Shown here piece after piece: positions 7,434-47,062 of a DNA stretch of 64,000 bases; positions within the stretch are counted from its first letter, which is position 1, and each line of letters opens with the position of its first letter. The position numbers and the translations under genes are program-made. The notes under the pieces were generated by a model. It made no database searches. It was given only the letters and a program-made list of their open reading frames with translations, and had not been told where the DNA came from. The DNA lies in NCBI GenBank assembly GCA_035555155.1, contig DATMGZ010000019.1, forward strand, positions 3,130 through 67,129, read 5' to 3'. The DNA comes from Solirubrobacteraceae bacterium. Its GTDB lineage: Bacteria > Actinomycetota > Thermoleophilia > Solirubrobacterales > Solirubrobacteraceae.

Positions 7434-7436
7434 GCA

Positions 7437-8156: not shown

Positions 8157-8220
8157 GCGCGGATTCTTTCCGTTTGGGGCAGATGCGAGACGAGCCTGGT
8201 CGCGCCCGCACCCTCGCCGG

Positions 8221-8745: not shown

Positions 8746-8782
8746 CTGTGTCGTCAATGCTACGGCGCGCGCGAAGTGCTGC

Positions 8783-8811
8783 ATCTGAGTTCCGGGGGCC
8801 GGAACTCAGAT
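8783..8811. promoter_or_regulatory. Perfect 13-bp inverted repeat in the divergent promoter region
   Basis: ATCTGAGTTCCGG-GGG-CCGGAACTCAGAT. Confidence 0.55.
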
Positions 8812-8846
8812 TCAACGCTTCACCCCACGCCCCCTCATCGGTCTGG

Positions 8847-8872
8847 TAAATTCTCACTTGCAATTTGCAAGT
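8847..8872 (+). promoter_or_regulatory. Extended -10 box (TGgTAAATT) followed by the palindromic operator ACTTGCAA-T-TTGCAAGT
   Basis: TAAATT at 8847-8852; perfect 8-1-8 palindrome at 8856-8872 covering the predicted start site of the protease genes. Confidence 0.6.
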
Positions 8873-8941
8873 AACTGCCGTGAGGGCCCAGCGGCGCTCC
8901 GCGCAGACTCACGACACCGCAGACACGAGGATGGATCGGCT

Positions 8942-9829: not shown

Positions 9830-9834
9830 GCGCC

Positions 9835-15415: not shown

Positions 15416-15593
15416 GTGCTGCCCCTTTCCACGCCGACGGGGCGTCTGACCGTCCCCGGTTCGGGCTCCCCAAACGCGGCTAAGGTATCAGACCCTTGTC
15501 GTCGCAACCAGATTTTCGGTCTGCCGTGCGCGAGCTTCTCAACGCCGCCGCGCTGGACTAGACTTCGGCCACCGGGCGGGTATCCCGACCGCG

Positions 15594-27619: not shown

Positions 27620-27634
27620 GCACTCGATCGCAGT

Positions 27635-27665
27635 GGCGTCCGGGCGGCCTCGCCGCCCGGACGCC
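27635..27665 (+). terminator. Hairpin after rpoC
   Basis: GGCGTCCGGGCGGC-CTC-GCCGCCCGGACGCC, 14-bp perfect stem, no U-tract. Confidence 0.7.
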
Positions 27666-27757
27666 GCAGATCACCGCTGTTGTGGCGCGACCAGTGCTCG
27701 CCGTCGAACGGTCGCGGGTCCAGATGAACGGCGCCGTTTGGTCGCGGCGTCGTCCTC

Positions 27758-27781
27758 TACAATCTGTGAATCCAGATTCAC
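27758..27781 (+). promoter_or_regulatory. -10 box TACAAT with adjacent palindromic operator GTGAATC-CA-GATTCAC
   Basis: TACAAT at 27758-27763; perfect 7-2-7 palindrome at 27766-27781 over the predicted transcription start of the ACAD pair. Confidence 0.65.
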
Positions 27782-27807
27782 CTGGTTGAGCGGAGAGGAG
27801 ACGACTC

Positions 27808-29016: not shown

Positions 29017-30146
29017 TGGATTTCGACCTGTCCTATGAGCAGGGCCTTTTGCGCGAGGCGGCGCGTGGCGCGCTCGCGCGCCACAAGACGGTCGAGGCCG
29101 CCCGCGCGGCCCTCGAGGATCCGACGGCGCTGCCCGACCTGTGGCCCACGGCGGTCGACGCCGGCTGGCCGGGGCTGCTGATCGGCGATGAGCACGGCGG
29201 CGCAGGGCTCGGCGCCTTCGATGCGCTGCTGGTGGCCGAGGAATGCGGTCGTGTGCTCGCGGCCGTGCCGCTGCTCGGCCTGATCCCGGCGACGGCGATC
29301 CTCGACACCGCCGGCGACGAGTCGCTGCCCGCGATCGCGCAGGGCGATCTGCGGCCGGCGTACGTGCCGGTCCGGCCGCCCGGCGACGTCGAGTCGGGCT
29401 GGACCGTGGACCCGCGCCGCGGGTTCGCGCGCCCGCCGGCCCCGCACGCCACGGTCGACGGCGACACCGTGACGCTCCATGGGGACGTCGCGTTCGTCCC
29501 CGATGCGCCGGGGGCCGGGCTGCTGGTGGGGATCGGCGTGACCGACGCCGGCGACCCGGTGGCCGTGGCCGTGGCCGCTGACGCCCCCGGCGTCACGGTC
29601 GAGCCGGTGAAGCGCTACGACGCGACCCGATCACTCGGCCACGTGAGCTTCGCCGGCGCGCGGGGCCGGCGGCTCGAGGCCGACGAGGTCGCGCTCGCCG
29701 ACGCCTGGTATCTCGCCCAGGCGCTGATCGCCGCCGAGTCGCTCGGCGCCGTGCAGACGTGCCTCGAGGTGAGCGTCGCCTACGCCAAGGAGCGGTTCAC
29801 CTTCGGCCGGGCGATCGGGTCCTACCAGTCGATCAAGCACGAGCTGACCGAGGTGCTGCGGCAGCTCGAGAACGCCCGCGGGCTGCAGTACTACGCGGGC
29901 TGGGCGCGCGACGCCGAACCGGCCCAGTTCCCGCTGGCGGCGAGCGCCGCCCGCTCGGCGGCGGGGCACGCGCTGGATTACGCCTCGCGCTCGATGATCA
30001 ACGTGCACGGCGGCATCGGCGCCACGTGGGAGCATGACGCGCCGCTGTTCTACCGGCGCGCGCAGCTCTCCGCGCGCCTCGTCGCGGGCACGGACGACGC
30101 GACCGACCGCGTTGCGGGCGAGACGATGGCGGCCGCTACGGCCTGA
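29016..30146 (+). CDS. Acyl-CoA dehydrogenase (short partner subunit, FadE27/FadE18-like)
   Basis: MDFDLSYEQ, YAKERFTFGRAIGSYQSIKH, HGGIGATWEHD; TGATG overlap with the upstream gene; lacks the SEP..GSD motif. Confidence 0.9.
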   Translation: MDFDLSYEQGLLREAARGALARHKTVEAARAALEDPTALPDLWPTAVDAGWPGLLIGDEHGGAGLGAFDALLVAEECGRVLAAVPLLGLIPATAILDTAGDESLPAIAQGDLRPAYVPVRPPGDVESGWTVDPRRGFARPPAPHATVDGDTVTLHGDVAFVPDAPGAGLLVGIGVTDAGDPVAVAVAADAPGVTVEPVKRYDATRSLGHVSFAGARGRRLEADEVALADAWYLAQALIAAESLGAVQTCLEVSVAYAKERFTFGRAIGSYQSIKHELTEVLRQLENARGLQYYAGWARDAEPAQFPLAASAARSAAGHALDYASRSMINVHGGIGATWEHDAPLFYRRAQLSARLVAGTDDATDRVAGETMAAATA

Positions 30147-30675
30147 GCGGCGCGGCGAGCTGGTCGGCCCAGCCGATCAGCTCGCCCACGTGCTCGCCGG
30201 TGATGCCCACCGCGCTGTCCGTGCCCACGAGCAGCGTCGGCGCGGCGCGGCGGGATGCCCACGCCTCGCACTCCGCGCCGAGGGCATCGTCGATCCACGC
30301 CAGCGGTTGCCGCGGCCCGACGTAGCGGTCGATCGCGTCGAGCTTCCAGTGGGCGTGCGAACGGCCGACGTCTCGCTCCAGCGCGAGGTGGGGTAGGGAG
30401 CCCGGCAGCCCGAGCGCGGACGGTAGATATTCGTTTGCCTTCTCCTCCCAGCCTGTGCACCAGACGAGATCGAACCGATCCAACAGGGTGCAGAGGTGTT
30501 CGCCCGCCGTGGCCGAAATGAAATGCGCAATCCCATCCACGAGCTCGAACCGGCCCTCAGGTGGCCGGCTCGGGTCGAAGCCGAACAGCGAGATCACACC
30601 GTCGACGTCGACCAGCAGCAGCGGACGCTCGATGGGCGCCAGATGCAGGGATTTCAGCGGTTCGTCAGCGAGCAC
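30136..30675 (-). CDS. HAD-superfamily protein (Swiss-army-knife RNA-repair-like HAD domain)
   Basis: LLLVDVDGVI (DxD), LVWCTGWE, WKL, AWIDD. Confidence 0.78.
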   Translation of the reverse strand: MLADEPLKSLHLAPIERPLLLVDVDGVISLFGFDPSRPPEGRFELVDGIAHFISATAGEHLCTLLDRFDLVWCTGWEEKANEYLPSALGLPGSLPHLALERDVGRSHAHWKLDAIDRYVGPRQPLAWIDDALGAECEAWASRRAAPTLLVGTDSAVGITGEHVGELIGWADQLAAPLRP

Positions 30676-30876
30676 GTTCGGAGTTTCCGGCGATCAAATG
30701 CCGATTCTTAGCTATCTCTATAGGAGCGCCGCGAACATGCCAGACACGATGAGGCTGTCACGAACGCGACAATTTGGTGTACTACAGACAGCGGATTCAA
30801 GGCGAACGCTTGCGTTGTCGAGTAGTTACAGCGTGAGACTGCGCACCGTTTCGCCTACGGCCGCGCCCCCCACCGT

Positions 30877-31749
30877 ATGACCCCCCTTCTCGGCATCCTG
30901 CTTGCCCTCGTCTGCGCTCTCGCGACGAACCTGGGCTTCCTCTACAAGCATCGCGGCGCGTGCTCCGCGCCCGCGGTCGATATCCAGCATCCGCTGCGCA
31001 CCGCGCGGGCTCTGTTCGCCTCGCGCTGGTTCGCGATCGGAATGCTCGTCGCCGCCGGAGCCTGGCTCTTCCACGTGGCCGCGATGGCGGTGGCCCCGCT
31101 GTCGGTCGTGCAGGCCGTCCTCGCCGCCGGCGTCGTGTTGCTGGCGATCATGGCTGAGCGCATGTTCGGGCTGCGGATCGGTCGCCGCCAGTGGCTTGGC
31201 CTCGGACTCACAGCCGTCGGACTGGTGCTGCTCGGCCTCACACTGCCCGCCAGCCACGGCGCCCACTCGCGCTTCTCGCTGCCCGGCATGATCGCCTTCG
31301 AGGCCGGCCTGATCGGCGTCGGCGCGCTGCTCATCATCGGCCCGCGCATCGGCGCCCCCGCGCACCATCACGGCTTCATGCTCGGAGCCGCCGCCGGGAT
31401 CCTGTTCGGTGTCTCCGATGTGGCCATCAAGGCGATCTCGGGGCTCGTCGGCACCTCCGGCCTGGCCGGCCTGATCTCCCCGTGGATGCTCGTCACCATT
31501 GCCGCCTCCGTCGCCGCCTTCTACGCCTCGGCCAAGGGACTGCAGGACGGGGACGCCGTGCCGGTGATCGCGATCACGGGAACTGCGGCCAACGTCGCCG
31601 GAATCGTGGGCGGCATCATCGTCTTCGGCGACCCGATGTCGGCCAGTCCGCTCGGCATCGTCGTCCAGAGCCTGGCCTTCATGCTCGTCCTCGTCGCCGC
31701 CTGGCTGACGCCGGGCCCCGTGCGGGCCGTCGGCGGCGCCGCGGTCTAG
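30877..31749 (+). CDS. DMT/EamA-like membrane transporter
   Basis: About 9-10 hydrophobic segments; APLSVVQAVLA; KGLQDG. Confidence 0.75.
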   Translation: MTPLLGILLALVCALATNLGFLYKHRGACSAPAVDIQHPLRTARALFASRWFAIGMLVAAGAWLFHVAAMAVAPLSVVQAVLAAGVVLLAIMAERMFGLRIGRRQWLGLGLTAVGLVLLGLTLPASHGAHSRFSLPGMIAFEAGLIGVGALLIIGPRIGAPAHHHGFMLGAAAGILFGVSDVAIKAISGLVGTSGLAGLISPWMLVTIAASVAAFYASAKGLQDGDAVPVIAITGTAANVAGIVGGIIVFGDPMSASPLGIVVQSLAFMLVLVAAWLTPGPVRAVGGAAV

Positions 31750-32534
31750 CTTCTCGCCGCACTGCCCGCGAGCAGTACGTCCGCGACCTGGTCCGGATCG
31801 TCGTACGTCGGCACGTGGCCGCAGTCGGTCAGGGTGATCGATCGCGCCGCAGGAATCTGGCGTGCGGCACGCGCGGCTTGGCGGGGCAGCAGCAGATGGT
31901 CCTTCTCGCCCCAGGCGATCGTGACCGGAACCGTGATCTCCTCGCCGCCGCTGAACGGCTCCGCCAGCATCGCCTCGAGCGTCGGCCCGAACCAGCGTGA
32001 CCCCGCGACGCCACGAACATTGTCGGCGGCGTCCACGGCGCTCATCCGCTCGGGATGGGCGGCCATCTGGCTGAACAACAGCCGCCGGCCCAGCGGCGTG
32101 GCCGCCACCGTGTCGGCGACCGGCGCGAGCAGCCGGGTTGCGTGCAGCATGAACTCGAGCGAGAGCTTCTGGAAGCGCGCCTCGGCGCCCTCGTGAAAGC
32201 CCGCCGGCGAGAGCGCGTTGGCCGATCGGATCCGTCCGGTCCTGGCCAGCTCGAGGGCGATCTGGCCGCCGAGGGAGTTCCCGGCCACGTGGGGCCGGTC
32301 GATGCCGAGCTCGTCGAGGAAGTTGAGTACGAGCCGCGCCAGCGACCGGACGCCCGGCGGCGTGCGCGGCGCCGGGAGCGGGGAGGCGCCGAAGCCCGGG
32401 AGGTCGAGCGCGATCACGCTGCGCCCGGTGGCCAGGCGCTCGAGCACCGGCATCCACACCTGCCAGCGGCTGCCGATCCCGTGGATGAGGACGAGCGGCT
32501 CGCCGCTGCCGTCGCGGTAGTGGTTGAGCATCAT
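31746..32534 (-). CDS. Alpha/beta fold hydrolase
   Basis: LVLIHGIGS, DLPGFG, nucleophile elbow GNSLGG, WGEKD, CGHVP. Confidence 0.9.
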   Translation of the reverse strand: MMLNHYRDGSGEPLVLIHGIGSRWQVWMPVLERLATGRSVIALDLPGFGASPLPAPRTPPGVRSLARLVLNFLDELGIDRPHVAGNSLGGQIALELARTGRIRSANALSPAGFHEGAEARFQKLSLEFMLHATRLLAPVADTVAATPLGRRLLFSQMAAHPERMSAVDAADNVRGVAGSRWFGPTLEAMLAEPFSGGEEITVPVTIAWGEKDHLLLPRQAARAARQIPAARSITLTDCGHVPTYDDPDQVADVLLAGSAARS

Positions 32535-32707
32535 CGCGTACGGCAAGCTATTGCACGCCGCGGGCCCGGTGGGGTTGATGGGCGGCTCCGCGCCTATCCA
32601 TAATGGCCAACAGTGCTGGGCGACTACGCCGAATCAGCTAATTGAGCGGCCCGGATCGGACCGCTACCGTTGTACGAAAAGGCGAACATGTGTCCGAGGG
32701 AGGGCAG

Positions 32708-34099
32708 ATGCCGAGTATCGACGAGGCTGTACGTACCGAACGGAGCACGCTCCAGGAGCTGGCGCACCGGCATCTGTGGATGCATTTCACCCGCATGTCG
32801 GCGTACGACCACGCGCAGATCCCGGTGATCGTGCGCGGGGAGGGGTGCTACGTCTACGACGAGCATGGCAACCGCTACCTCGACGGCCTCTCGGCCCTGT
32901 TCTGCGTCAATATCGGTCACGGTCGCGCCGACATCGCCCAGGCCGGCGCCGATCAGGCCAGAGAGCTCGGCTTCTTCACCAACTGGTCCTACGCGCACCC
33001 GCCGGTGATCGAGCTCGCGGCCAAGGTGGCCTCGCTGGCACCGGGCGATCTCAACCGCGTCTTCTTCACCAGCGGCGGCAGCGAGGCGGTCGAGTCGGCG
33101 ATCAAGCTCTCCCGTCAGTATCACAAGCTGACCGGCAATCCGAACAAGACGAAGCTGATCGCACGCGAGATCGCCTACCACGGCGTCACTCTCGGAGCGC
33201 TCTCGGCGACCGGGATCACCAGCCTGCGCGAGCCGTTCGAGCCGCTCACCCCCGGCGGCTGCCACGTGCTCAACACGAACACCTACCGGATCTCGCCCGG
33301 CGTGGCCGAGCAGGACCTGGTCGAGGCGATCGCCGCCCGGATCGAGTTCGAAGGCCCCGACACCGTCGCGGCGGTGATCCTCGAGCCGGTGCAGAATGCC
33401 GGCGGGTGCTTCGTGCCGCCCGAAGGCTACTTCCAGCGCGTGCGCGAGATCTGCGACGAATACAACGTGATCATGATCTCCGACGAGGTGATCTGCTCGT
33501 GGGGGCGCCTCGGCGAGTGGTTCGGCGCCCAGCGCTACGGCTACGAGCCGGACATCATCACCACGGCCAAGGGGCTGACGAGCGCGTACGCGCCGATGGG
33601 CGCGATGATCGCCTCCGACCGCATCGCGGAGCCGTTCATGGACGGCGCCAACAGCTTCACGCACGGGTTCACGTTCGGAGGCCATCCGATGTCCTCGGCC
33701 ATCGCGATGGCGAACATCGACGCCATGGAGCGCGAGCATGTCCTCGAGAACGTGCGCGAGAACGAGGGCGCGTTCCGGGCCATGCTCGAGTCGCTGCGCG
33801 ACATCCCGATCGTCGGCGACGTCCGTGGCGCCGGCTACTTCCAGGCCATCGAGCTGGTCAAGGACCGGGACACGAAGGAATCCTTCTCCGACGGCGAGTC
33901 CGAGACGCTGCTGCGCGGGTTCCTGTCGGTCGAGCTCTACCGCCGCGGGCTGATCTGCCGCGCAGATGACCGCGGCGACCCGGTGATCCAGCTCTCGCCG
34001 CCGCTGATCAGCGGTCCCCAGCAGTTCGAAGAGATCGAGGCGGTGCTCAGACCCGTGCTGAGCGAGGCCAGCGAACGCATGCACGTCCACCAGGCCTGA
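32708..34099 (+). CDS. Class III (omega-amino acid/amine:pyruvate) aminotransferase
   Basis: LWMHFT, YLDGLSALF, FFTSGGSEAVE, YHGVT, DEVICSWGR, PLP lysine in TTAKGLTS. Confidence 0.92.
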   Translation: MPSIDEAVRTERSTLQELAHRHLWMHFTRMSAYDHAQIPVIVRGEGCYVYDEHGNRYLDGLSALFCVNIGHGRADIAQAGADQARELGFFTNWSYAHPPVIELAAKVASLAPGDLNRVFFTSGGSEAVESAIKLSRQYHKLTGNPNKTKLIAREIAYHGVTLGALSATGITSLREPFEPLTPGGCHVLNTNTYRISPGVAEQDLVEAIAARIEFEGPDTVAAVILEPVQNAGGCFVPPEGYFQRVREICDEYNVIMISDEVICSWGRLGEWFGAQRYGYEPDIITTAKGLTSAYAPMGAMIASDRIAEPFMDGANSFTHGFTFGGHPMSSAIAMANIDAMEREHVLENVRENEGAFRAMLESLRDIPIVGDVRGAGYFQAIELVKDRDTKESFSDGESETLLRGFLSVELYRRGLICRADDRGDPVIQLSPPLISGPQQFEEIEAVLRPVLSEASERMHVHQA

Positions 34100-34106
34100 G
34101 CGTCCG

Positions 34107-35741
34107 ATGCTGACCGTCAGAGAGCTGCTGCGCGACATCGACGTGCGCGTCCTCGCGGGCGAGGCCGGCCTCGAGCTGCCGGTGCGCTGGGTGCACATCA
34201 CCGAGCTGCTCGACCCCACGCCCTGGCTCTCGGGCGGTGAGCTGATCCTGACGACCGGGATGCAGCTCAACACGGTCGAGCGCCAGCGCGAGTTCGTCCA
34301 CCGGCTGGCCGACCACCAGCTCGCCGGACTCGGAGTCGGCACCGGGTTCATGCACGACGAGATCCCCGCTGCGGTGCTCGAGGCGGCGGCCGAGCGCGAC
34401 TTCCCCCTGTTCGAGGTGCCCTACGAGCTTCCGTTCATCGCCGTCACCGAGGCGGCCTTCACCCAGCTCGTCAACGAGCAGTACGCGGTGCTGCGCCGGG
34501 CGCTGGCGGCGCACGAGCGGCTCGAGCGGATCGTGCTCTCCGAACGCGGGCTCGACGCTCTCGTCGGCGCGCTCTCGAATCTGGTCGGGGGGGCCGTGCT
34601 CGTCTTCGACGGCCGCGGCGAGCCGCTCGTCCAGGCCTCGTTCCGCCGCGAGCTCGATGCCGACGCGTTGGCCGCGCTCGAGACCGAGGTGCACGAGCGG
34701 GCGGGCCGCCGCGAGGGACGGGCGTTCGTGCCCTCCCTGGCCGAGGAGGGCAACCGCGGCCTGGCGTTGCCGGTGGCCGCCGACGGGGTGCCGCGCCACG
34801 GGCCCGAGGACGCCCGCGCGCCGGAGGCGTGGCTGATCGCGCTCAAGGACATCGGCCCACTCTCGGACTTCGACCGCCTCACGCTGCACCAGGCGGTCAC
34901 GATCGTCGCGCTCGAGCTGCTCCGCGGCCGCGTCGCCGACGACACCGAGCGGCGCCTGGCCGGCGACGTGCTCGCCGCGGTCGTCAGCGGTGAGCTGAGC
35001 GGCCCTGAGCTGTCGCGTCGCCTCGAGCCGTTCGGGCTCTCGCAGCGCGTCGCCGCGATCGTCGTCGAACGCCCCAACGACGGGCGCGGTCCCGCTGCTC
35101 CGGTCGAGGCGGCACTGTCGGCCGCGCTGCGCGAGGAGGCGACACCCGGACTCGTGGCCTCGACCGGACCGCTCACCTGCGCGCTCGTGGCCGGGCTGGG
35201 AGAGGATGAGCTTCTGGCCGTCGCCGGTCGCGTCGGGGTCCGGCTGGTCCCGGAGCTCGGCGACTCGCCCGCGCTCGGACTCGGCCGCGCCGTCGACGGT
35301 GAGCTCGCCCGGCGGAGCTTCCATGAGGCCCGGTGCGCGCTCGAGGCCCTGGCGCTCGGCTTCCATGACGGCAACGGCAACGGCAACGGGTCGGGCCCGC
35401 ATCCCGAACGGCCCCGGATCGCCACCTACCGCGACCTCGGCTCCTTCCAGCTGCTTCTGTCGTTGCAGGACGACGAGGCGCTGCGGCTGTTCTGCGACTC
35501 GATCCTGGGACCGATCGAGACCAGCGAGGGGCACTACGGAGGCGAGCTGATGCGCTCGCTCGAGGCTTTCATCGAGGAGAACGGCCAGTGGGAGAGAGCC
35601 GCGCGCAGGCTCTACTGCCACCGACACACGCTGCGTTACCGAATCCGAAGAGTCGAAGAGCTGACCGGTCGCAACCTGCAGAGCGCGCGGGACCGGATCG
35701 AGTTCTGGCTCGCCTTGCGCGGAAGGGAGCTCGTGTCGTGA
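34107..35741 (+). CDS. PucR family transcriptional regulator
   Basis: N-terminal VRWVHITELLDPTPWLSGGELILTTG; C-terminal HTH AARRLYCHRHTLRYRIRRVEELTG. Confidence 0.93.
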   Translation: MLTVRELLRDIDVRVLAGEAGLELPVRWVHITELLDPTPWLSGGELILTTGMQLNTVERQREFVHRLADHQLAGLGVGTGFMHDEIPAAVLEAAAERDFPLFEVPYELPFIAVTEAAFTQLVNEQYAVLRRALAAHERLERIVLSERGLDALVGALSNLVGGAVLVFDGRGEPLVQASFRRELDADALAALETEVHERAGRREGRAFVPSLAEEGNRGLALPVAADGVPRHGPEDARAPEAWLIALKDIGPLSDFDRLTLHQAVTIVALELLRGRVADDTERRLAGDVLAAVVSGELSGPELSRRLEPFGLSQRVAAIVVERPNDGRGPAAPVEAALSAALREEATPGLVASTGPLTCALVAGLGEDELLAVAGRVGVRLVPELGDSPALGLGRAVDGELARRSFHEARCALEALALGFHDGNGNGNGSGPHPERPRIATYRDLGSFQLLLSLQDDEALRLFCDSILGPIETSEGHYGGELMRSLEAFIEENGQWERAARRLYCHRHTLRYRIRRVEELTGRNLQSARDRIEFWLALRGRELVS

Positions 35742-36871
35742 AAGTTGGTGTCCCCACCGAGGTCAAGAAGGACGAATACCGGGTCGCGCTGACCCCCGCC
35801 GGCGTGCGCGAGCTCGCCGATGCCGGCCATGAGGTCTACATCCAGAGCGGCGCCGGCGTGGGCTCGGCGATCGAGGACGCCGACTACGCCGCCCAGGGGG
35901 CGACGATCGTGCCCGACGCCGACGCGGTGTTCGAGGCCGGCGAGCTGATCGTCAAGGTCAAGGAACCCCAGCCGGCCGAGGTGGCCCGGCTCGAGCCGCG
36001 GCACACGCTGTTCACCTATCTGCACCTGGCCGCCGACGCTGAGCTGACCCGGGGGCTGATGGCCTCCGGCGCGACCTGCATCGCCTACGAGACGGTCGAG
36101 GACGTCCGGGGTCGGCTGCCGCTGCTGGCGCCGATGTCCGAGGTGGCCGGAAAGATCGCCACCCAGGCCGGGGCGTTCATGCTCGAGAAGCCGCTCGGCG
36201 GCCGGGGCATCCTGCTCGGCGGCGTGCCCGGCGTGACCGCGGCGAACGTGATGATCATCGGCGGCGGAGTCGTCGGCATGAACGCCGCCTTCATCGCGCT
36301 CGGGATGGAGGCGACGGTGTTCGTGTTCGACCGCAGCATCGACCGCCTGCGGGAGCTCGACATCGCCTTCGGCGGCCGGGCCGACACCTGTTTCGCGTCC
36401 ACGCTCGAGATCGAGCAGCGGCTGCCCCACGCCGACCTGGTGATCGGCGCGGTGCTCGTGCACGGCGCGCGCGCCCCGCGCGTGGTCACCCGTGCGCAGC
36501 TCGGGCTGATGAAGCGCCAGGCGGTGCTCGTGGACGTCTCGATCGACCAGGGCGGCTGCTTCGAGACCTCCCGGCCCACGACCCACTCCGACCCGACCTA
36601 CGAGGTCGACGGGATCACCCACTACTGCGTCACCAACATGCCCGGCGCGGTGCCGATCACCTCCACCTACGCGCTCACCAACGCGACCATGCCCTACGTG
36701 GTGCAGCTCGCCGGCGCCCGCGCGCGGGCGGCGATCGCGGCCAGCCCCGAGCTCAGGCCGGGCGTCAACGTGGCCGGCGGCCAGGTGACCTACGCGCCGG
36801 TGGCGGAGGCGGTCGGGATCCCGCACGTGTCGGTCGAAGAGGCGCTCTCCTCGGCCGTGGGGGCGGCGTGA
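35738..36871 (+). CDS. ald: Alanine dehydrogenase
   Basis: [59 protein letters not shown]; GTGA overlap with pucR. Confidence 0.96.
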
Positions 36872-36902
36872 GATGGTGGGAGAGGGCCCAACCGGCCCGC
36901 CC

Positions 36903-36911
36903 TGCTAGCCT
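36903..36911 (+). promoter_or_regulatory. Putative extended -10 promoter giving a near-leaderless rpsL mRNA
   Basis: TGcTAGCCT ends 10 nt before the ATG at 36922; no SD upstream of that ATG. Confidence 0.5.
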
Positions 36912-36921
36912 TGCGCGTCGC

Positions 36922-37314
36922 ATGCCGACTACAAGCCAATTGATCCGTAAGGGCCGTAACGCGCCGAAGAAGAAGCTCGCCACCCCGGGCCTCAAGTCCG
37001 GCAAGGGCCGCAAGAAGAAGGTTGCCGCTCCGCAGCGACGCGGTGTGTGCACGCGCGTCTATACGACCACGCCCAAGAAGCCGAACTCCGCGCTGCGCAA
37101 GGTGGCGCGCGTGCGGCTGACCAACGGCATGGAGGTCGGCGCCTACATCCCCGGCGAGGGGCACAACCTGCAGGAGCACTCGGTCGTGCTCGTCCGCGGC
37201 GGTCGCGTCAAGGACCTCCCGGGATTCCGCTACAAGGTGATCCGCGGCACCCTCGACGCCGCCGGCGTCGGCGACCGCAAGAAGGCCCGCTCGCAGTACG
37301 GCGTGAAGAAGTAA
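36922..37314 (+). CDS. rpsL: 30S ribosomal protein S12
   Basis: [43 protein letters not shown]. Confidence 0.98.
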
Positions 37315-37321
37315 CGCACTC

Positions 37322-37792
37322 ATGCCCCGCCGCGCAGCCGCCCAGATCCGGCCGATCGAACCCGACCCCGTCCACCGCAACCGCCTCGTACAGCAGGTGG
37401 TCAACAAGGTGATGCTGGACGGCAAGAAGTCCACCGCCGAGCAGATCGTCTACGACGCCCTCGCCATCCTCGGCGAGCGCAGCGGCAAGAACCCCGTCGA
37501 GCAGCTCGAGGCGGGCATCAAGGCGCTGACCCCGGTGCTCGAGGTCCGCTCCCGCCGCGTCGGCGGCGCCACCTACCAGGTTCCCGTCGAGGTCCCCGCG
37601 CGCCGCGCCCGGACTCTCGCCGTCCGCTGGCTCATCCAGTTCTCCCGCGCTCGCCGCGAGAAGACGATGGCCCAGCGCCTCGCGCACGAGCTTCTCGACG
37701 CCCAGCAGCAGCAGGGCGCCGCGTTCAAGCGCAAGGATGACATCTACCGCATGGCGCAGGCCAACAAGGCCTTCGCCCACTATCGCTGGTAG
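37322..37792 (+). CDS. rpsG: 30S ribosomal protein S7
   Basis: [36 protein letters not shown]. Confidence 0.98.
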
Positions 37793-37856
37793 CGGCGCCC
37801 GGCGCCGTCTTGGCGCCCGCCCGAGCGGCTGCAAACCGGCGCCTCGCTGTGTTCTC

Positions 37857-37887
37857 GGCGCGGCGATAGCGCTGCTATCGCCGCGCC
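37857..37887. terminator. Bidirectional hairpin between rpsG and the convergent inserted block
   Basis: GGCGCGGCGATAGC-GCT-GCTATCGCCGCGCC, 14-bp perfect stem. Confidence 0.7.
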
Positions 37888-37957
37888 TGCGTCGTTGCGA
37901 GGCTTGGTTTTCGCTCGCCGGTGACTCACCCTATCCCCAGCCGCCGTTGACGCCCGG

Positions 37958-39562
37958 CTACCCCGCGCCGACGCGTCCGATCTCGTCCCGGACCGCGGGC
38001 AGGAACGCGTTCTTCGGCCCGTTCCGGCCCGACGCCGCCGATGCGCGCGTTCCGCCGCCACCCGCGCTCGCCACACTCGCGCGGGCCGCGCCGGCCGCTG
38101 CCCAGTCGTGCGCGGCCGCCTTCAGCGCCAGCAGCGCCGGCCAGGTGGTGGCGTCGATGACGCCGGTGGCCCGGATTCCGTGGGCGGTCTGGAACGCCCT
38201 CACCGCCGCAGCGGTGAGGCTGCCGAAGCTGCCGTCGGTGGCGACGGTGGCGCCGGCGGCGACGAGGTGCTCCTGGGCCCAGACGACGAGGTCGCCCTGC
38301 GAGCCGCTGCTGAGCGTCGGGTAGCCGGGCGCCGGGCTCGGGGGCGGCAGGGATCCGATCGGCGAGCCGACCGCGCCCCAGCCGGCGGTGGTCGCCTCCT
38401 GCCAGTCCCACCAGCTCTCACCGCCCGCCCCGTAGGCGGCCGCGTCCTGGCGGAAGCGCAGCAGAGCCGAGACCGGCGGGCTGTTGTAGATCTGCCCGAG
38501 GGGGTAGATCGGGGCGCCGTAGACCCGGTTCAGCGGCCAGGTGTGGGCATAGACGGTGTCCACGCTGGTGCCGATGTCTTGCCAGTACATCTGGGGCAGG
38601 TTGTACTGCGCGCCGCCCGGCCCGAGGAACACGGAGTAGGGGAAGGCGGGGTGGTAATCGACGTAGGGGAAGCTCGCGAGGCCGACGGGATAGGACGCAC
38701 CGACGCCCTTGCGCAGCGCCTGGATGTACTGCTGGGCCTGCGAGTAGCGGCCCTCGTACTCGCTCTCGGCGTCGATCACGAGGCAGTCGGCGCCGTTGCG
38801 GGCCGATTGGATGCCGACCTGCGCCTCGGCCAGCGGGGAGTTGCCGTACACGTACTGCCACGCGCACACGTGCAGGCCCTGGGCCTTGAGGGCGGCGACG
38901 TTCGCCGGCGAGAACTGCGCCCACTGGTTGCCGCCGTCGCCGGACTTGAGGAACACGGTCTTGACCCCGTGGGCGGCGGCCTGGCGGCCGATGGCGACGG
39001 GATCGCCGCCCTGGGAGGCGCTCAGGTACCAGATCCACATCCCGTTGCCGTTGAGGACGCTCGCGCCGGCGGTGACCGGGGGCTGGACCGGCGGCGACAC
39101 GGCGGGCGCCGGTGGCCGCCGGACCGTGATCCGGATTCCGTTCGAGCGGGAGCTTCCGGGCGACACGAGCCGGAGCACGCCGCTGACCGCGTCCGCGGGA
39201 ACCGTGACCAGCATCCGGGTCGCGCGCACCATCCGGCCGCTCACGCTCCGGGTCCAGTGCCGGCCGTTGTCGCGGGCGGGGATCAGGATCCGGGTCCGGG
39301 CGAGGAGGCCGTGGGCGCCGACCTCGAGCTCGCTGGTGCGCACGACCACGACCGGAGAGCCGGGATAGCAGGGGATGCTCGTGCGGATGCAGTGAACCCA
39401 GACGAGCGTCGGGCGCACCACCCTGGCCGCCGCCGCCGCCGGAACGAGGACGGCCACGAGCGCCAGCACCGCCCCCGCCGCGGCCGTCACGGCCGCGAGC
39501 CGGGCGGCCGCGAGCCGGGCGGCCGGCGACGCGAGCGTGCTCGGGTGTCGCGCGGGACTCAT
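37958..39562 (-). CDS. Secreted peptidoglycan-binding protein with a glycoside-hydrolase-like TIM-barrel domain
   Basis: Signal peptide, beta-rich N-domain, GMWIWY...VFLKSGDG...AWQYVYG...LVIDAESEY...PQMYW; PG_binding_1 tail LSSGSQGDLV...DGSFGSLTAAAVRAFQ..HGI.ATGVID..TW. Confidence 0.82.
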   Translation of the reverse strand: MSPARHPSTLASPAARLAAARLAAVTAAAGAVLALVAVLVPAAAAARVVRPTLVWVHCIRTSIPCYPGSPVVVVRTSELEVGAHGLLARTRILIPARDNGRHWTRSVSGRMVRATRMLVTVPADAVSGVLRLVSPGSSRSNGIRITVRRPPAPAVSPPVQPPVTAGASVLNGNGMWIWYLSASQGGDPVAIGRQAAAHGVKTVFLKSGDGGNQWAQFSPANVAALKAQGLHVCAWQYVYGNSPLAEAQVGIQSARNGADCLVIDAESEYEGRYSQAQQYIQALRKGVGASYPVGLASFPYVDYHPAFPYSVFLGPGGAQYNLPQMYWQDIGTSVDTVYAHTWPLNRVYGAPIYPLGQIYNSPPVSALLRFRQDAAAYGAGGESWWDWQEATTAGWGAVGSPIGSLPPPSPAPGYPTLSSGSQGDLVVWAQEHLVAAGATVATDGSFGSLTAAAVRAFQTAHGIRATGVIDATTWPALLALKAAAHDWAAAGAARASVASAGGGGTRASAASGRNGPKNAFLPAVRDEIGRVGAG

Positions 39563-41505
39563 GAAACCTGGTACCCAAGCTTGGCAAGCTGGTCAAGGTC
39601 CGACCCGAGCTGCTGCGTGGCTCCGGCCACCTCGGCGCGGGCGATCGTGTATCCGATCGGGTCATGCCGGCGGGCCGCGCCGGCGATGTCCCGGTAGGCC
39701 TGGCTCACCTGCGCGAGGCTGTCGCGGACCGCCACGTGTGCGCCCGTCTCGGGCGGGCTGACAATTCCGGCCCCGAGAGCTCGAGTGAAGGCGGCGGCGG
39801 CCGTCGCGTAGGCGTCGGCGAGCCCGTTCGCCGCCGCCCTCTGGGCGCCGGGGTCGCGGGCCTGGGCGAAATCGCCGAGGCCGGCGTCGGCCTGAGCGGA
39901 GAGCCGGCCGAGCACAGGGTTCAGGAACCCGGCGTAGCCGGCGCGCGGATCGAGCGGGTAATGCGCGGCGCCGGTGACCCGAACCGTGTTGAGGATGTGC
40001 TCGCAGCCGGCGAACAAGCCCCCGCCGGCGGCGAACGTCGGCGCGACGCAGGCGGCGACGGCCACACGCCCGCGCCTGGGCACGAGCAGAACCTCGTAGT
40101 GGTGGCGGCCGACGACGTCGTACAGCCGGCCCTGGAGGCCGCTCGGCAGCTTCACCGCCGTGCCCAGCGCCGGCACTGCGGCGACATCGCGGAGCGTCTT
40201 GGGCACCAGGCTCGGGCCGAAGGCCACGGTCGTTCCCACGGCGACCACGCCACGTGTCGCCGATGCCGGCCCGGCGGCGGCGTTCGCGCCCGCGAACAGC
40301 TCCGGCAGCGACACGCGTCGCGACCCCCAGCTCGCCGGAACCTCGACGCTGACGCCGTCATGGCTGAGCTGGCGCGTCGGCGTCAGGGCGCCGGCCTCCT
40401 CACCGCCGCGCCCGGCCAGGAAGCCCGCCAGCGTCGCGACTCCGCACGCCGCGGCGAGGAGCCCGACGCCGCGTGGTGCGCGCCACCGGCGCCGGCGGGG
40501 TGCCCGCGGCGCGGGTGCCGGCGCCGGCCACCGCGGTGGCGGCTGCGGCTGCGTCTCGATGACGACCTCGGTCGCCGCGGTGGCACGGGCGGGGATCGCC
40601 TGGGTGGCCGAGGTCACACCGGTCGGATCGACGGATCGCGCGCTCGTCTTGATCGAAAGGGTCGCCGCGCGGACCGGCGCCGGCACCGCCGCCCGCGCCT
40701 CGAGCGCGCGCCGGGCCGCGGCGATCAGCTCCGCCGCGCTGGCGTAGCGGTCCTCCCGGCGCTTGGCCAACGCCCGGGCGAACACCGCGTCGAGCTCGAC
40801 CGGCAGCTCCGGCGCCAGCGTGCGCACCGACGGCGGCGGCTGCTCGAGGTGCGCGTACATGGTGGCGATCTTGCTCGAGCGGGGGAAGGGGACGGCGCCG
40901 GAGAGACACTCGAACAGGACGGCTCCGAGCGAGTACAGATCGCTGCGGGCGTCGGGCTCCTCGTCACGGATCTGCTCCGGGGAGACGTAATCCGGTGTGC
41001 CGACGAACTGGCCCGTCGTGGTGACCGACGTGACCCCGGCGGCGGTGGTCAGTCCGAAGTCGGCCAGGTAGGCGTGGTCGCCGCCGGCCACGAGGATGTT
41101 CTGCGGCTTGACGTCGCGGTGGATCAGCCCGGCGGCGTGAGCGGCATCGAGCGCGCGGGCGATCCCGCGGAGCAGATCGAGCGCGTCGGACACCTCGAGG
41201 GTCCCGATCAGCTGCTTGAGGTTCGGACCGTCGACGAGGCGCATCGCGATGAACAGGCCGTAGGAGGACTCGCCGGCCTCGTACACCGGGACGATGTTCG
41301 GGTGCTCGAGCGTCGCCTGCAGCATCGCCTCCCGCCGGAAGCGCTTGTGGAACGCCTCGTCCTGGCTGAGGTTCGCCGACAGCACCTTCAATGCAACCAC
41401 TCGGCCGAGCGAGAGTTGCGTCGCGAGGTACACGGTGCCCATCCCACCGGACGCGAGGTAGCCGTCGATCCGGAATCCGGCGATGCGGGTACCCGGCTCG
41501 AGCAT
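39559..41505 (-). CDS. Hanks-type Ser/Thr protein kinase with TM segment and non-PASTA extracellular domain
   Basis: LASGGMGTVY, VALKVL, HPNIV, IHRDVKPQNIL, DFG, GTPDYVSPEQ, DLYSLG; TM GLLAAACGVATLAGFLAG. Start ATG 41505. Confidence 0.93.
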   Translation of the reverse strand: MLEPGTRIAGFRIDGYLASGGMGTVYLATQLSLGRVVALKVLSANLSQDEAFHKRFRREAMLQATLEHPNIVPVYEAGESSYGLFIAMRLVDGPNLKQLIGTLEVSDALDLLRGIARALDAAHAAGLIHRDVKPQNILVAGGDHAYLADFGLTTAAGVTSVTTTGQFVGTPDYVSPEQIRDEEPDARSDLYSLGAVLFECLSGAVPFPRSSKIATMYAHLEQPPPSVRTLAPELPVELDAVFARALAKRREDRYASAAELIAAARRALEARAAVPAPVRAATLSIKTSARSVDPTGVTSATQAIPARATAATEVVIETQPQPPPRWPAPAPAPRAPRRRRWRAPRGVGLLAAACGVATLAGFLAGRGGEEAGALTPTRQLSHDGVSVEVPASWGSRRVSLPELFAGANAAAGPASATRGVVAVGTTVAFGPSLVPKTLRDVAAVPALGTAVKLPSGLQGRLYDVVGRHHYEVLLVPRRGRVAVAACVAPTFAAGGGLFAGCEHILNTVRVTGAAHYPLDPRAGYAGFLNPVLGRLSAQADAGLGDFAQARDPGAQRAAANGLADAYATAAAAFTRALGAGIVSPPETGAHVAVRDSLAQVSQAYRDIAGAARRHDPIGYTIARAEVAGATQQLGSDLDQLAKLGYQVS

Positions 41506-41729
41506 CAGTGACCGCCGCACGCCTTCCCCACACCGCAGAGCGGTCCCACCGAGCCCGAGTTGCGCAGGGACCCGGCGTGAACCGCCAGCGACCCGGTGTG
41601 GATCGAGGTGAGCTGTTCCTCGCGCGCGCTGCGCCCGAGCCCGAATCCGATCCCCGCGCAGCAGATCACGGCGACCGCGGCAGCGAGGGCCCGGCGGGGA
41701 GAGGGGAGCAAGGAGCGGGGCGTCTGCAC
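41505..41729 (-). CDS. Small single-TM/exported peptide (about 74 aa; alternative start 41783)
   Basis: RRALAAAVAVICCAGIGFGLGRS hydrophobic segment; its TGA overlaps the kinase ATG (TGATG coupling). Confidence 0.55.
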   Translation of the reverse strand: MQTPRSLLPSPRRALAAAVAVICCAGIGFGLGRSAREEQLTSIHTGSLAVHAGSLRNSGSVGPLCGVGKACGGH

Positions 41730-41878
41730 GTCTCGCTCCGAGCGTAACGACCGCGCCGCCGATCGCCCACGCGTGGCAGACAAATAACGCGAGGGTCGCC
41801 CGCCGCACGGGACCGGGGGCTGCAGCGGGACAACCCTCGCGTCTAGGAAATGTAACGCCCGGCGGGTGGCGGCGTGGA

Positions 41879-42460
41879 TTAGTTGGCCGGCAAGTCAGAT
41901 GCCTGCCGGGCGGATTGGACATGCACGCCAGCGGAAGGGCGAGGACCCGGGGGCGCCCCGCCGAGCAGAAGCCCGAGCCCCGCCGTGACGATCAGGACGG
42001 CGGCGCCGAGCGTCTCCATGTACAGGCCCGCCTGGGGCGTCGAGCTGGCATTGGCGTAGTGACCGGATCCGGCCGCGATGAGGCCCGTCGCGTGGGCGTC
42101 GGGCAGGTCGGCGGCGAGGGCGAGCACGAGCGTCAGCAGTCCGAGCACGCCCAGCGCCACGAGCGCCGGACGGCTTCCCTGACTCCAGGCGCCATACGCG
42201 AGCAGGACGGCGAGGATCGCGACCGGAATCAGCGCATCGGCGTGGTGCGATCCTGTCGAGACCGACGTGACGGCCACCGGGCTGAGGGCGGTGTGGACCT
42301 CGAACAGCGTCGTGAACTCCGCGACGACGAGCAGCAGCGCCCCGAGCAGGCCGCCGGCGAAAACCGCCGCCGGGACGGCCGATCCGATCCTCGCCAGGCC
42401 CCCGGACGGCTCCGACCCTCTGCTATATTCGGGCTTCGCCTCGGGCGGCGTCGCGTTCAT
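41879..42460 (-). CDS. Integral membrane protein (about 4 TM), function unknown
   Basis: GLLGALLLVVAEFTTLF, ALIPVAILAVLLAYGA, LGVLGLLTLVLALAADLPD, GLYMETLGAAVLIV; start set at ATG 42460. Confidence 0.75.
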   Translation of the reverse strand: MNATPPEAKPEYSRGSEPSGGLARIGSAVPAAVFAGGLLGALLLVVAEFTTLFEVHTALSPVAVTSVSTGSHHADALIPVAILAVLLAYGAWSQGSRPALVALGVLGLLTLVLALAADLPDAHATGLIAAGSGHYANASSTPQAGLYMETLGAAVLIVTAGLGLLLGGAPPGPRPSAGVHVQSARQASDLPAN

Positions 42461-42550
42461 CCGTGCTCGCTCCCGGGCGCAGATGGATCCCAGCGATGGA
42501 GACGCCGACCTACTAGACAAAAGCCCGCCCTCGACAGCCGCGTCGTGAAC

Positions 42551-42570
42551 GGGCCCCCTGGGCCCTTTTT
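42551..42570 (+). promoter_or_regulatory. Terminator-like hairpin in the fusA leader (possible attenuator)
   Basis: GGGCCC-CCT-GGGCCC-TTTTT ending 47 nt before the fusA ATG. Confidence 0.5.
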
Positions 42571-42617
42571 CATGTCCGCGGCGATGACCGGCAACCACCC
42601 CAGAAGAAACCACTTTC

Positions 42618-44711
<2,094 letters not shown>

Positions 44712-44797
44712 CAGCAATCCCAGACGGAACTTAGATAGATTGATTGGGTTCGCCCGCAGGGCGGACCACAACCACTGAGCAGAAGGAGCACACCAAA

Positions 44798-45985
<1,188 letters not shown>

Positions 45986-45994
45986 CAGGTAGGA

Positions 45995-46032
45995 GGCGGC
46001 GTGGGCCTGACGGCCCCGCCGCCGTTTTGTTT
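45995..46032 (+). terminator. Intrinsic terminator between tuf and rpsJ
   Basis: GGCGGCG-T-GGGCC-TGAC-GGCCC-CGCCGCC followed by GTTTTGTTT. Confidence 0.7.
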
Positions 46033-46052
46033 CCAGCAGATACGACAACGCA

Positions 46053-46083
46053 GGGGCGGGTCCCGAACCCGGGGACTCGCCCT
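46053..46083 (+). promoter_or_regulatory. Stable hairpin in the rpsJ (S10 operon) leader
   Basis: GGGGCGGGTCCC/GGGACTCGCCCT, 12-bp stem with 2 G-U pairs and a 7-nt loop, 25 nt before the ATG. Confidence 0.5.
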
Positions 46084-46108
46084 CAACACTGAAAAGACCC
46101 AAGCCTTC

Positions 46109-46435
46109 ATGGCAACCATCGCTCAAAACAAGATCCGCATTCGCCTCAAGTCCTACGACCACACGGCGATCGAGACAGCGGCCAAGGAGATCGTCGAGAC
46201 GGCGACGCGCACCGGCGCGACCGTGTCCGGTCCCGTCCCGCTGCCGACGGAGAAGAACGTCTACTGCGTGATCCGCTCCCCGTTCAAGGACAAGGATTCA
46301 CGCGAGCACTTCGAGATTCGCACGCACAAGCGACTCATCGACATCCATCAGCCGACGCCGAAGACGGTCGACTCGCTCCAGCGACTCGACCACCTCCCGG
46401 CCGGGGTGGATATCGAGATCCGCTTGGCCTCCTAG
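46109..46435 (+). CDS. rpsJ: 30S ribosomal protein S10
   Basis: [34 protein letters not shown]. Confidence 0.98.
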
Positions 46436-46444
46436 GAGTCACGG

Positions 46445-47062
46445 ATGCCAGCGATCCTCGCCAAGAAGCTCGGTATGACCCAGCGGTTCCTCGATGACGG
46501 GCGCGTCGAGCGCGTCACCGTGCTCGAGGCCGGCCCGTGCCCGGTGACCGGGATCCGGACCAAGGAGCGCGACGGCTACGAGGCCGTGCAGCTCGCATTC
46601 GGTCAGTGCAAGGAGAAGGTCCTGACCCGGGCTGAGCTCGGTCATCTCAAGAAGGCCGATGCGTCGGCGCATCGCCACCTGGTCGAGTTCCGCGACGAGG
46701 CCGGCGAGCTGCTGGTCGGACAGACCGTGACCGTGGAGGCCTTCGGGCCCGGCCAGAAGGTCAAGATCTCCGGCACGTCCAAGGGCAAGGGCTTCCAGGG
46801 CACGATCAAGCGACACAACTTTGCCAGCGGGCCCAAGTCGCACGGCTCGCACAACGTCCGAGCGCCAGGATCGATCGGCGCCTCCGCGACCCCGTCGCGC
46901 GTGTTCAAGGGCCTGCGCGGCCCCGGCCGCATGGGCGGCGCGCGAATCACGCAGCGCGGGTTGACCGTGGTCGAAGTGATCCCGGCCCAGAACCTGATGC
47001 TCGTCCGCGGGGCCGTGCCCGGCCCCAAGGGCGGCACCGTGGAGGTCCGGACCGATGGCTAG
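46445..47062 (+). CDS. rplC: 50S ribosomal protein L3
   Basis: KKLGMTQ, SKGKGFQGTIKRH, SHGS..RAPGSIG, GAVPGPKG. Confidence 0.98.
   Translation: MPAILAKKLGMTQRFLDDGRVERVTVLEAGPCPVTGIRTKERDGYEAVQLAFGQCKEKVLTRAELGHLKKADASAHRHLVEFRDEAGELLVGQTVTVEAFGPGQKVKISGTSKGKGFQGTIKRHNFASGPKSHGSHNVRAPGSIGASATPSRVFKGLRGPGRMGGARITQRGLTVVEVIPAQNLMLVRGAVPGPKGGTVEVRTDG

Follow-up and report, generated by a model that had tools for sequence, protein, structure and literature searches.

Organization of the str region

The neighborhood of rpsG and fusA is among the most stable gene neighborhoods in bacteria. Within a stretch of 64,000 nucleotides from a Solirubrobacteraceae bacterium (contig DATMGZ010000019.1 of assembly GCA_035555155.1), in the following called the window, this neighborhood is interrupted. 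The genes of the ribosomal proteins S12 (rpsL) and S7 (rpsG) are separated from those of the elongation factors EF-G (fusA) and EF-Tu (tuf) by 4,825 bp (37793-42617), measured from the rpsG stop to the fusA start, and four genes located in this interval lie on the minus strand (Table 1). They encode a peptidoglycan (PG)-binding protein, a Ser/Thr protein kinase, a small membrane protein and a predicted four-helix membrane protein, here named MEM, which is followed by a conserved hairpin named EL. A preliminary description of the locus had reported a 4.8 kb antisense block with four opposite-strand genes between rpsG and fusA and a separate leader of fusA. The block was confirmed by Pfam scans and by the coordinates, the number of genes is correct, and the leader was confirmed as well. 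It comprises an extended -10 promoter box, a short upstream open reading frame (uORF) and a hairpin resembling an intrinsic terminator. From the comparisons described below we conclude, with moderate confidence, that two independent str units are ancestral to the Solirubrobacterales-like clade and that fusA-tuf is placed behind a uORF-terminator leader of the attenuator type.

Table 1. Genes and sequence elements of the split str region and their positions in the window
Feature	Position	Strand	Remarks
Extended -10 box of rpsL-rpsG, TGCTAGCCT	36903-36911	+	ends 10 nt before the rpsL ATG
rpsL (S12)	36922-37314	+	PF00164, E 5e-36; start MPTTSQ confirmed
rpsG (S7)	37322-37792	+	PF00177, E 1e-56; 7 nt past rpsL
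Hairpin, 14 bp, 3-nt loop	37857-37887		between the convergent rpsG and PG-binding genes; -31.6 kcal/mol
PG-binding protein, 534 aa	37958-39562	-	PF01471 (PG_binding_1), E 1.6e-13
Hanks-type Ser/Thr protein kinase, 648 aa	39559-41505	-	PF00069, E 7e-41; 140.7 bits, cut-off 31.7
Single-helix membrane protein, 74 aa, C-terminus CGVGxACGGH	41505-41729	-	conserved; 74 aa in L200, 68 aa in L201
EL, conserved 25-bp bulged hairpin, 58 nt, then UUAUUUGU	41786-41843	-	35 nt past the MEM stop
MEM, predicted four-helix membrane protein, 193 aa	41879-42460	-	divergent from fusA; tblastn matches at the same position in many relatives
Extended -10 box of fusA, TGCTATATT, TCGC 6 nt later	42421-42429	+	93 of 96 loci
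Six-codon uORF ATGGAGACGCCGACCTACTAG (METPTY*)	42496-42516	+	93 of 96 loci
Spacer with candidate antiterminator	42523-42549	+	GCCCG, at +7 from the uORF stop, is a possible partner of CGGGC in the terminator 5' arm
Intrinsic-terminator-like hairpin, GGGCCC-CCT-GGGCCC + TTTTT	42551-42570	+	47 nt before the fusA ATG
fusA (EF-G)	42618-44711	+	five EF-G domains (Pfam)
tuf (EF-Tu)	44798-45985	+	Pfam; GTG start confirmed; 395 aa, same length in L200
Terminator-like hairpin with T-run between tuf and rpsJ	46009-46026	+	hairpin scan

Verification of the junctions

The window is derived from a metagenome, conserved ribosomal genes are classic break and join points of assemblies, and the word depth jumps at rpsL, rpsG and fusA, all of which would fit a misassembly or a chimeric contig. 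However, Logan contigs of four independent peat-metagenome runs span both junctions (e.g. 37753-38297 and 42418-42689), with an even depth of approximately 10x over the insert. An independent Joint Genome Institute metagenome contig (L163) is identical to the window across 14.6 kb. The four-gene order recurs in three related species (L200, L201 and L202), in which MEM is 87% (L200 and L201) and the PG-binding protein 77% (L202) identical to the respective product of the window, and L204, which has only MEM and the PG-binding gene, agrees in their order. As identical junctions recur in four independent metagenome assemblies and in three related species, the split is not due to misassembly, and such an origin is hardly conceivable. 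The preliminary description had named a failure of reads to span the junctions as a reason to discard the split; since assembled contigs cross both junctions, this objection fails.

Distribution of the open junction

Eighty loci were fetched by S7 similarity from contigs representing one genome per species, and the genes of S12, S7, EF-G, EF-Tu and S10 were located in them. A large and variable distance between rpsG and fusA is common to all records that bear the label Solirubrobacterales, Solirubrobacteraceae, Conexibacter(aceae), Thermoleophilaceae or Thermoleophilia and reach an S7 identity of about 72% or more. Every Solirubrobacterales-like locus sampled revealed either an inverted arrangement or an rpsG-fusA gap, which measures 233-3,750 bp, and the gap of the window is the largest among the loci examined. 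In L017 and L019 (about 6600-10500), the block fusA-tuf-rpsJ is inverted and divergent from rpsL-rpsG; in L013 (about 500-6300), rpsG is followed by unrelated genes, with rpoC on the opposite strand. The content of the gap varies by species, comprising transporters of the major facilitator superfamily, other small genes or no gene at all. In the Gaiellales-like sister clade, rpsG and fusA are 24-63 bp apart, and in other phyla 11-369 bp, mostly 50-200 bp. A neighbor-joining tree of concatenated EF-G, EF-Tu, S7 and S12 sequences placed the open and the closed state of the junction in sister clades. The split thus is, as far as these sequences reveal, an old, clade-defining and order-wide state and not an event of this genome. 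It is not class-wide, a possibility that the preliminary description had left to a synteny survey, since the junction is closed in the Gaiellales-like clade. No paper describing an rpsG-fusA split in this order was found in the literature.

These data bear on the question whether a canonical operon was split recently, and in this genome alone, by an insertion or rearrangement, either an island or a horizontally acquired cassette. The size of the gap and the restriction of the kinase and small-protein genes to the closest relatives would be in line with such an event. On the other hand, all members of the clade have an open junction, accompanied by a conserved fusA leader, MEM and EL are common to more than 100 loci, and the PG-binding family is native to the order. 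Neither integrase, transposase nor recombinase domains were detected by Pfam scans of all four insert proteins, no tRNA gene was found in 36000-47000, and possible flanking direct or inverted repeats of the insert were restricted to low-identity matches at chance level, which agrees with the lack of integrase, transposase and flanking direct repeats already stated in the preliminary description. Moreover, the GC content of the insert (0.72-0.78) is in the range of the other non-ribosomal genes in the window. A private insertion is therefore highly improbable. The term "fixed rearrangement" used in the preliminary description is appropriate insofar as the arrangement is fixed and no artefact, but it does not apply to an event of this genome, since the junction is open clade-wide.

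The fusA leader

Regions of 200-320 nt upstream of fusA were aligned for 96 distinct loci. The -10 box, whose consensus TGCTAYNNT occurs in 93 of them (exactly as TGCTATATT in 80), marks a putative promoter approximately 195 nt upstream of fusA. A generic sigma-70 scan of 35500-46500 yielded no -35/-10 pair; the promoter was assigned on the basis of the extended -10 box and its conservation. The uORF begins 52-86 nt from this box. It starts with ATGGAG and follows the pattern ME[T/S]xxx, also ME[T/S]x[T/S]x. Six codons are the rule (88 of 93 uORFs; four have seven codons and one has five), so that all indels are multiples of three, and the in-frame stop is TAG in 65, TAA in 19 and TGA in nine cases. 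The Ser codons TCG and AGC interchange. Because the stops are interchangeable, the frame is kept while the spacers change freely, and TCG and AGC replace each other, the uORF is predicted to be a translated reading frame. At a distance of 29-38 nt from the uORF stop (typically approximately 33 nt), the terminator follows, which was found as GGGCCC-N2-5-GGGCCC with T4-8 in 95 of the 96 loci. As a composite, the leader motif was detected 104 times in 4 Mb, 97 times directly before fusA; the other seven occurrences are the same leader at contig ends. None of the leader elements is present in the Gaiellales-like clade, and an Rfam scan of 36500-43500 gave no match at E<=1.

In this clade, the start of fusA itself lacks a Shine-Dalgarno sequence. 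At 42598-42617 and at the same position in 90 relatives, 3% of the sequences reach -5 kcal/mol in pairing with the anti-Shine-Dalgarno sequence, compared to a background of 19%, and the region upstream of fusA is rich in A and C. A role of AUGGAG as Shine-Dalgarno sequence for a downstream start was considered and rejected, as visual inspection of leaders disclosed no start codon at a suitable distance. RNAalifold applied to the full-length leader alignment recovered the terminator alone, the variable parts aligning poorly. A second RNAalifold attempt suggested pairing of AUGGAG with UUUCAU past the terminator, but this pairing is rich in G-U and missing from the deeper branches and was discarded.

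In L107 (approximately 4880-4990), four tandem units of about 18 nt (CGGCCTCGCACCGACACC) are present between the leader terminator and the fusA ATG, resulting in a leader of 280 nt. The short contig L173 contains a second uORF-terminator leader, encoded on its other strand (approximately 242, minus strand), which may reflect a chimeric contig or a duplicated leader.

Transcription across the leader and from the rpsG side

It is conceivable that promoter, uORF and terminator constitute a stand-alone short transcript, i.e. a small RNA or the gene of a six-residue peptide, and that fusA is transcribed from a downstream promoter or by constitutive leakage, without regulation by a switch. Most leaders have a predicted fold in which the terminator dominates, and a non-canonical promoter could be concealed in the variable stretch of 30-145 nt that leads from the terminator to the fusA ATG. 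Nothing in this segment, however, is conserved across the 96 loci, and the sole conserved promoter is situated upstream of it. In L009, the -10 box starts 22 nt past the rpsG stop; therefore the terminator lies downstream of the conserved promoter and has to be crossed by transcripts of fusA. Furthermore, soil metatranscriptome contigs of relatives cover 42510-42617, reach approximately 76 nt further upstream and join fusA, i.e. they run from the leader into the gene. A stand-alone transcript is thus distinctly unlikely. A search for isolate RNA-seq data with the Conexibacter locus returned metatranscriptomes only.

Another possibility is that rpsL-rpsG and fusA-tuf are still co-transcribed by read-through over the antisense genes, which would render the split cosmetic. 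According to the preliminary description, rpsG ends at a 14-bp hairpin. This hairpin exists, but its position was misjudged: it is located 64 nt past the rpsG stop and has no adjoining U-run. It is missing from the equivalent spacer of L200 and L201 and is hence species-specific; probably it is a terminator without U-tract. The lack of the U-tract would permit read-through, and in L009 and L012 there is no gene between rpsG and the leader that would have to be crossed. In the window, by contrast, such a transcript must pass 4.6 kb of convergent genes, the plus-strand form of EL (-36 kcal/mol) and finally the leader terminator, and fusA has a conserved promoter of its own. The hairpins at 37857-37887 and 41786-41843 together with the terminator at 42551-42570 argue against a single transcript from rpsL to tuf. 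We regard read-through as very unlikely.

A putative promoter type shared by rpoB, rpsL and fusA

The motif TGCTAnnnT-N5-8-[TG]CGC occurs four times in the window, each time on the plus strand, namely at rpoB (19712), rpsL (36903) and fusA (42421) and ahead of the alpha-operon region (59079). In 80 of 86 relatives, TGnTAnnnT ends 9-10 nt before the rpsL ATG. A -10 box this close to the start codon implies that the rpsL mRNA is leaderless or nearly so. Since rpsL, rpoB and fusA share the promoter type, the two str halves may still be co-regulated at the level of initiation, despite their physical split. The notion of the preliminary description that EF-G and EF-Tu are uncoupled from S12 and S7 is consequently valid for the physical separation of the genes, but the uncoupling itself is possibly overstated, as the promoter type in common is a rare one. 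At the other end, no TGCTAnnnT promoter was found before rpsJ. Because a terminator-like hairpin is located between tuf and rpsJ, fusA and tuf may form a unit of two genes, from which transcription would partly continue into the S10 cluster.

Possible attenuation of fusA-tuf transcription

The spacer between uORF and terminator contains a candidate antiterminator, which encloses a CGAC-N6-GUCG hairpin. The pairing partner of the terminator begins at +7 past the uORF stop in 56 of 89 leaders. On this basis the following scheme can be proposed. The first unit, rpsL-rpsG, would be transcribed from an extended -10 promoter so near to the ATG that its mRNA has no or almost no leader. The second unit, fusA-tuf, would use the same promoter type, followed by the uORF, a spacer of 33 nt and the GC hairpin with its U-run. 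During transcription, GCCC at +7 of the spacer would pair with GGGC of the terminator 5' arm, and the resulting antiterminator would allow RNA polymerase to read into fusA. A ribosome that has finished the six codons and resides on the stop codon would hide GCCC under its footprint, so that the terminator forms and transcription stops. Fast translation would thereby lower transcription of the EF-G and EF-Tu genes, whereas slow or stalled translation would raise it. With each half autonomous, the interval from the rpsG terminator to the fusA promoter would be open to incoming genes, and such gains have occurred repeatedly.

An alternative assignment of the leader is that of an autoregulatory RNA bound by a protein, be it S7, another ribosomal protein or an elongation factor, the uORF being incidental. 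It would then be similar to other leaders of ribosomal-protein genes and to the candidate streptococcal attenuator of rpsG-fusA. S7-attributed attenuators or structured RNAs have been predicted before rpsL and fusA in other phyla (PMC2965389). One subclade conserves GCGTCGTGA and the CGAC-N6-GTCG hairpin beyond the needs of a simple switch, and L017, L019 and L025 possess the terminator without a uORF. However, a fixed in-frame position at which three stops interchange, combined with uORF lengths of five, six and seven codons, can hardly be accounted for unless translation takes place. Rfam yielded no match, and the deeper branches do not conserve the putative binding hairpin. Binding of a protein to the leader is, on balance, rather unlikely.

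Several observations have to be set against the attenuator reading and the scenario built upon it. The three loci without uORF just mentioned have kept both promoter and terminator. Upstream of the uORF, the signal resembling a Shine-Dalgarno sequence is weak and distant (41% compared to a background of 19%), and codon positions 1, 2 and 3 of the uORF are equally variable, i.e. there is no wobble signature. Pairing of the antiterminator is possible in 94% of the leaders, compared to 70% with shuffled spacers, which is a modest excess over chance. The terminator belongs to the minimum-energy fold of 82% of the free leaders; as it dominates this fold, the switch would have to be kinetic. The metatranscriptome contigs that join leader and fusA stem from relatives at an identity of at least 85%, with possible carry-over of DNA. 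Those matching L167 cover only conserved coding parts from many taxa and are uninformative, their apparent "joints" being derived from canonically organized organisms. Metagenome loci were collected with an exact 20-mer of the EL hairpin, by which one subclade is over-represented. Promoter activity, uORF translation and attenuation were all deduced from conservation, the antiterminator and the direction of regulation were likewise read from the sequences, and the evolutionary order with the leader first and the genes later is based on parsimony.

That fusA has a conserved promoter and leader and is autonomous in this respect is much more secure than the attenuator reading, to which we assign a roughly even chance. 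It is likely that the independent fusA promoter with its uORF-terminator leader was the enabling feature of the split. Still more far-reaching is the idea that, throughout the order, the six-codon uORF gauges the speed of ribosomes through initiation, elongation and termination and by this means sets transcription of fusA-tuf, possibly also of the S10 genes, and that the autonomy so gained let rpsG and fusA separate and accrete genes. This idea is tentative, and we are inclined to doubt it more than to accept it. If it were true, it would mean a direct feedback from the translational capacity, or from antibiotic-stalled ribosomes, to the supply of EF-G and EF-Tu. If the attenuator reading fails, a clean but modest result of comparative genomics is left.

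Genes of the insert and their probable stepwise accretion

Homologs of MEM with 35-57% identity are divergent from fusA at many loci of both subclades. Altogether 372 homologs were found, every one of which is labelled "hypothetical"; a few have a precomputed match to PF09534. A MEM-like ORF was also seen in L013, just upstream of rpsL. In the window, codons 1-13 of MEM (42422-42460, minus strand) are antisense to the -10 box and the 5' leader of fusA (42421-42460, plus strand), and the conserved E-Y-S motif of MEM is complementary to TGCTATATT. From this layout, the predicted MEM promoter must sit within the fusA leader. Therefore, the transcripts of MEM and fusA would overlap head-to-head, and they could interfere with each other.

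The remaining three genes are tightly arranged, the stop of the 74-aa protein overlapping the kinase start (TGATG) and the stop of the kinase overlapping the start of the PG-binding gene (ATGA). The 74-aa protein revealed no Pfam match, nor did the Pfam scan assign a family to the C-terminal 313 aa of the kinase, its extracytoplasmic part. For the PG-binding protein, a lookup of the exact protein gave no record. Besides the PG-binding domain, to which its matches in the PDB are restricted, it has a GH25 match (PF01183) with an E value of 2e-4 that covers 93 residues and attains 22 bits at a cut-off of 27. The family is common across the order, many members are annotated as GH25 and several have a precomputed PF01183 match. 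The product is predicted to be secreted or membrane-anchored and to combine peptidoglycan binding with a GH25-like (muramidase-like) core, with the GH25 score lying below the cut-off. Together, PG-binding protein, small membrane protein and kinase are probably a module for sensing or remodelling of the cell wall that is functionally unlinked to translation.

All four genes are present in L200, L201 and L202. In L204 (6270-8545), only MEM and the PG-binding gene are positioned between fusA and rpsG, without kinase and small protein, and the 74-aa protein and the kinase are restricted to the closest relatives of the window. The kinase ortholog of L201 (5070-5953) is broken into pieces of 93 and 211 aa, and L203 harbors a more distant PG-binding homolog elsewhere in its genome, in a kdp/hopanoid neighborhood. 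The simplest reading that we infer from these patterns is a stepwise accretion of MEM, then of the PG-binding gene, and then of the small protein and the kinase. In terms of the scheme given above, the two str units would have accepted MEM with an EL terminator shared with rpsG, the PG-binding/GH25-like gene and, in the subclade of the window, small protein and kinase. Judged by the gene contents compared, cargo at the rpsG-fusA site is being gained and lost. The 4.8 kb, which the preliminary description had treated as a single rearrangement, are consequently not the product of one event but consist of layers of differing age, and the window represents the largest and most recently enlarged version.

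The EL hairpin

EL was noticed in DNA comparisons as an element of 57-74 nt (41786-41859). On the minus strand, it folds with -46.4 kcal/mol (z -4.0) and is followed by a U-rich tail; the z-score of the plus strand is -0.9. A metagenome scan with a 20-nt core retrieved at least 119 contigs (L081-L199), 118 of them with the full element, and EL resides in the rpsG-fusA region wherever the flanking genes are identifiable. Among 101 distinct copies, 95% of the cells are paired and eight pairs are changed on both sides; the search with a 20-mer biases this sample towards conserved copies. Judged by the frequent G-U pairs, the RNA strand is the MEM-sense one. EL is also present in L200-L202. The copy of L204, which was found independently, is more diverged and exhibits compensatory swaps. 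Sequence conservation of EL amounts to approximately 93% over 57 nt (about 90% or more), compared to 40-57% amino acid identity of MEM. In most relatives, EL is located between the convergent rpsG and MEM genes and is bordered by an A-tract and, at the opposite end, a U-tract; some of the loci that lack MEM have EL in inverted orientation behind rpsG. No Rfam or tRNA match was obtained for EL.

With its GC-rich stem, U-tract and position at a gene 3' end, EL is terminator-like and has the shape of a bidirectional terminator. Two other assignments were rejected. EL is not a dispersed repeat (repetitive extragenic palindrome or miniature inverted-repeat transposable element), since it is single-copy in the window and occurs at most once per locus in L001-L080. 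Nor is it a plus-strand element, because its fold on that strand is no better than that of shuffled sequences and the G-U pairs become C-A mismatches there. The C-rich loop and the bulge of EL recall the seed loops of small RNAs.

Neighboring genes

On the plus strand, genes of an aminotransferase, a PucR-type regulator and an alanine dehydrogenase precede rpsL, and tuf is followed by rpsJ and the S10 cluster (order according to a Pfam scan of the ORFs). Some further features of the window are worth recording. Between rplL and rpoB, a 1,343-aa ORF with a coding-like GC content at third codon positions is located (15450-19478, plus strand), which is a further insertion, this time within the usually contiguous rplKAJL-rpoBC region. 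rpoC and rpsL are separated by approximately 9 kb (27620-36900) of non-translational genes, including the aminotransferase-PucR-alanine dehydrogenase set. The adjacency of alanine dehydrogenase and rpsL is kept in most relatives.

Relation to known systems

Thermoleophilia are abundant but poorly studied soil bacteria. An order with an open rpsG-fusA junction, variable cargo and inversions is a natural experiment on what holds translation genes together and on what must change before they separate; the fusA leader is a testable candidate for such a change. In addition, the promoter motif and the leader can be used for the annotation of Thermoleophilia genomes.

The canonical str operon of E. 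coli, B. subtilis and Streptomyces comprises the same four genes in the same order and on one strand, with rpsJ and the S10 cluster behind them. In the window, rpsL and rpsG are still tightly linked (7 nt) and fusA and tuf are still adjacent. What fails is the adjacency of rpsG and fusA, which is replaced by 4.8 kb with four antisense genes, and fusA has its own promoter and leader. [quoted passage not shown] The premise of the preliminary description, that S7 couples the translation of rpsG and fusA, was therefore imprecise, since S7 acts at the rpsL-rpsG spacer. The S7-binding rpsL-rpsG RNA is confined to Gammaproteobacteria (PMC3616713). As the spacer in the window is as short as 7 nt, there was no E. 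coli-type S7 operator to lose; an extended structured spacer like that of the operator is absent here, judged by the length and by the lack of an Rfam match.

Separation of translation genes as such has a precedent. Brandis et al. (2019, PMC6735719) describe for Gammaproteobacteria that multigene insertions separate concatenated translation operons. The shared features are the build-up of genes at the boundaries of units and the retention of order and orientation. By contrast, the insertions described there are placed between operons, while the break in the window is inside the str operon, at rpsG-fusA.

EL can be compared to the bidirectional intrinsic terminators between convergent genes, with which it shares the position, the GC-rich stem and the flanking A- and U-tracts. 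It differs from them in its unusual length (a bulged stem of 25 bp), in being better conserved than MEM and in persisting, sometimes inverted, where MEM is missing.

Ribosome-dependent attenuators are known from the trp, thr and ilv leaders and from the uORF attenuators of erm and ABC-F resistance genes. A uORF-terminator leader is also found at whiB7 of mycobacteria (PMC10274678). The leader studied here resembles all of these in its sequence of putative promoter, short uORF and terminator and in a candidate segment for pairing with the terminator 5' arm, a segment that a ribosome at the uORF stop could reach. It differs in its targets, which are elongation factors, and in the six codons without a run of one regulatory codon. 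No description of uORF-attenuator control of elongation-factor synthesis was found in the literature. The candidate streptococcal rpsG-fusA attenuator (PMC2965389) resembles the leader in that a terminator-type element is positioned immediately upstream of fusA. On the other hand, the candidate rpsL and fusA attenuators of that study have no reported uORF, belong to an unsplit operon, are proposed to bind S7 and show no similarity to the leader in either sequence or structure.

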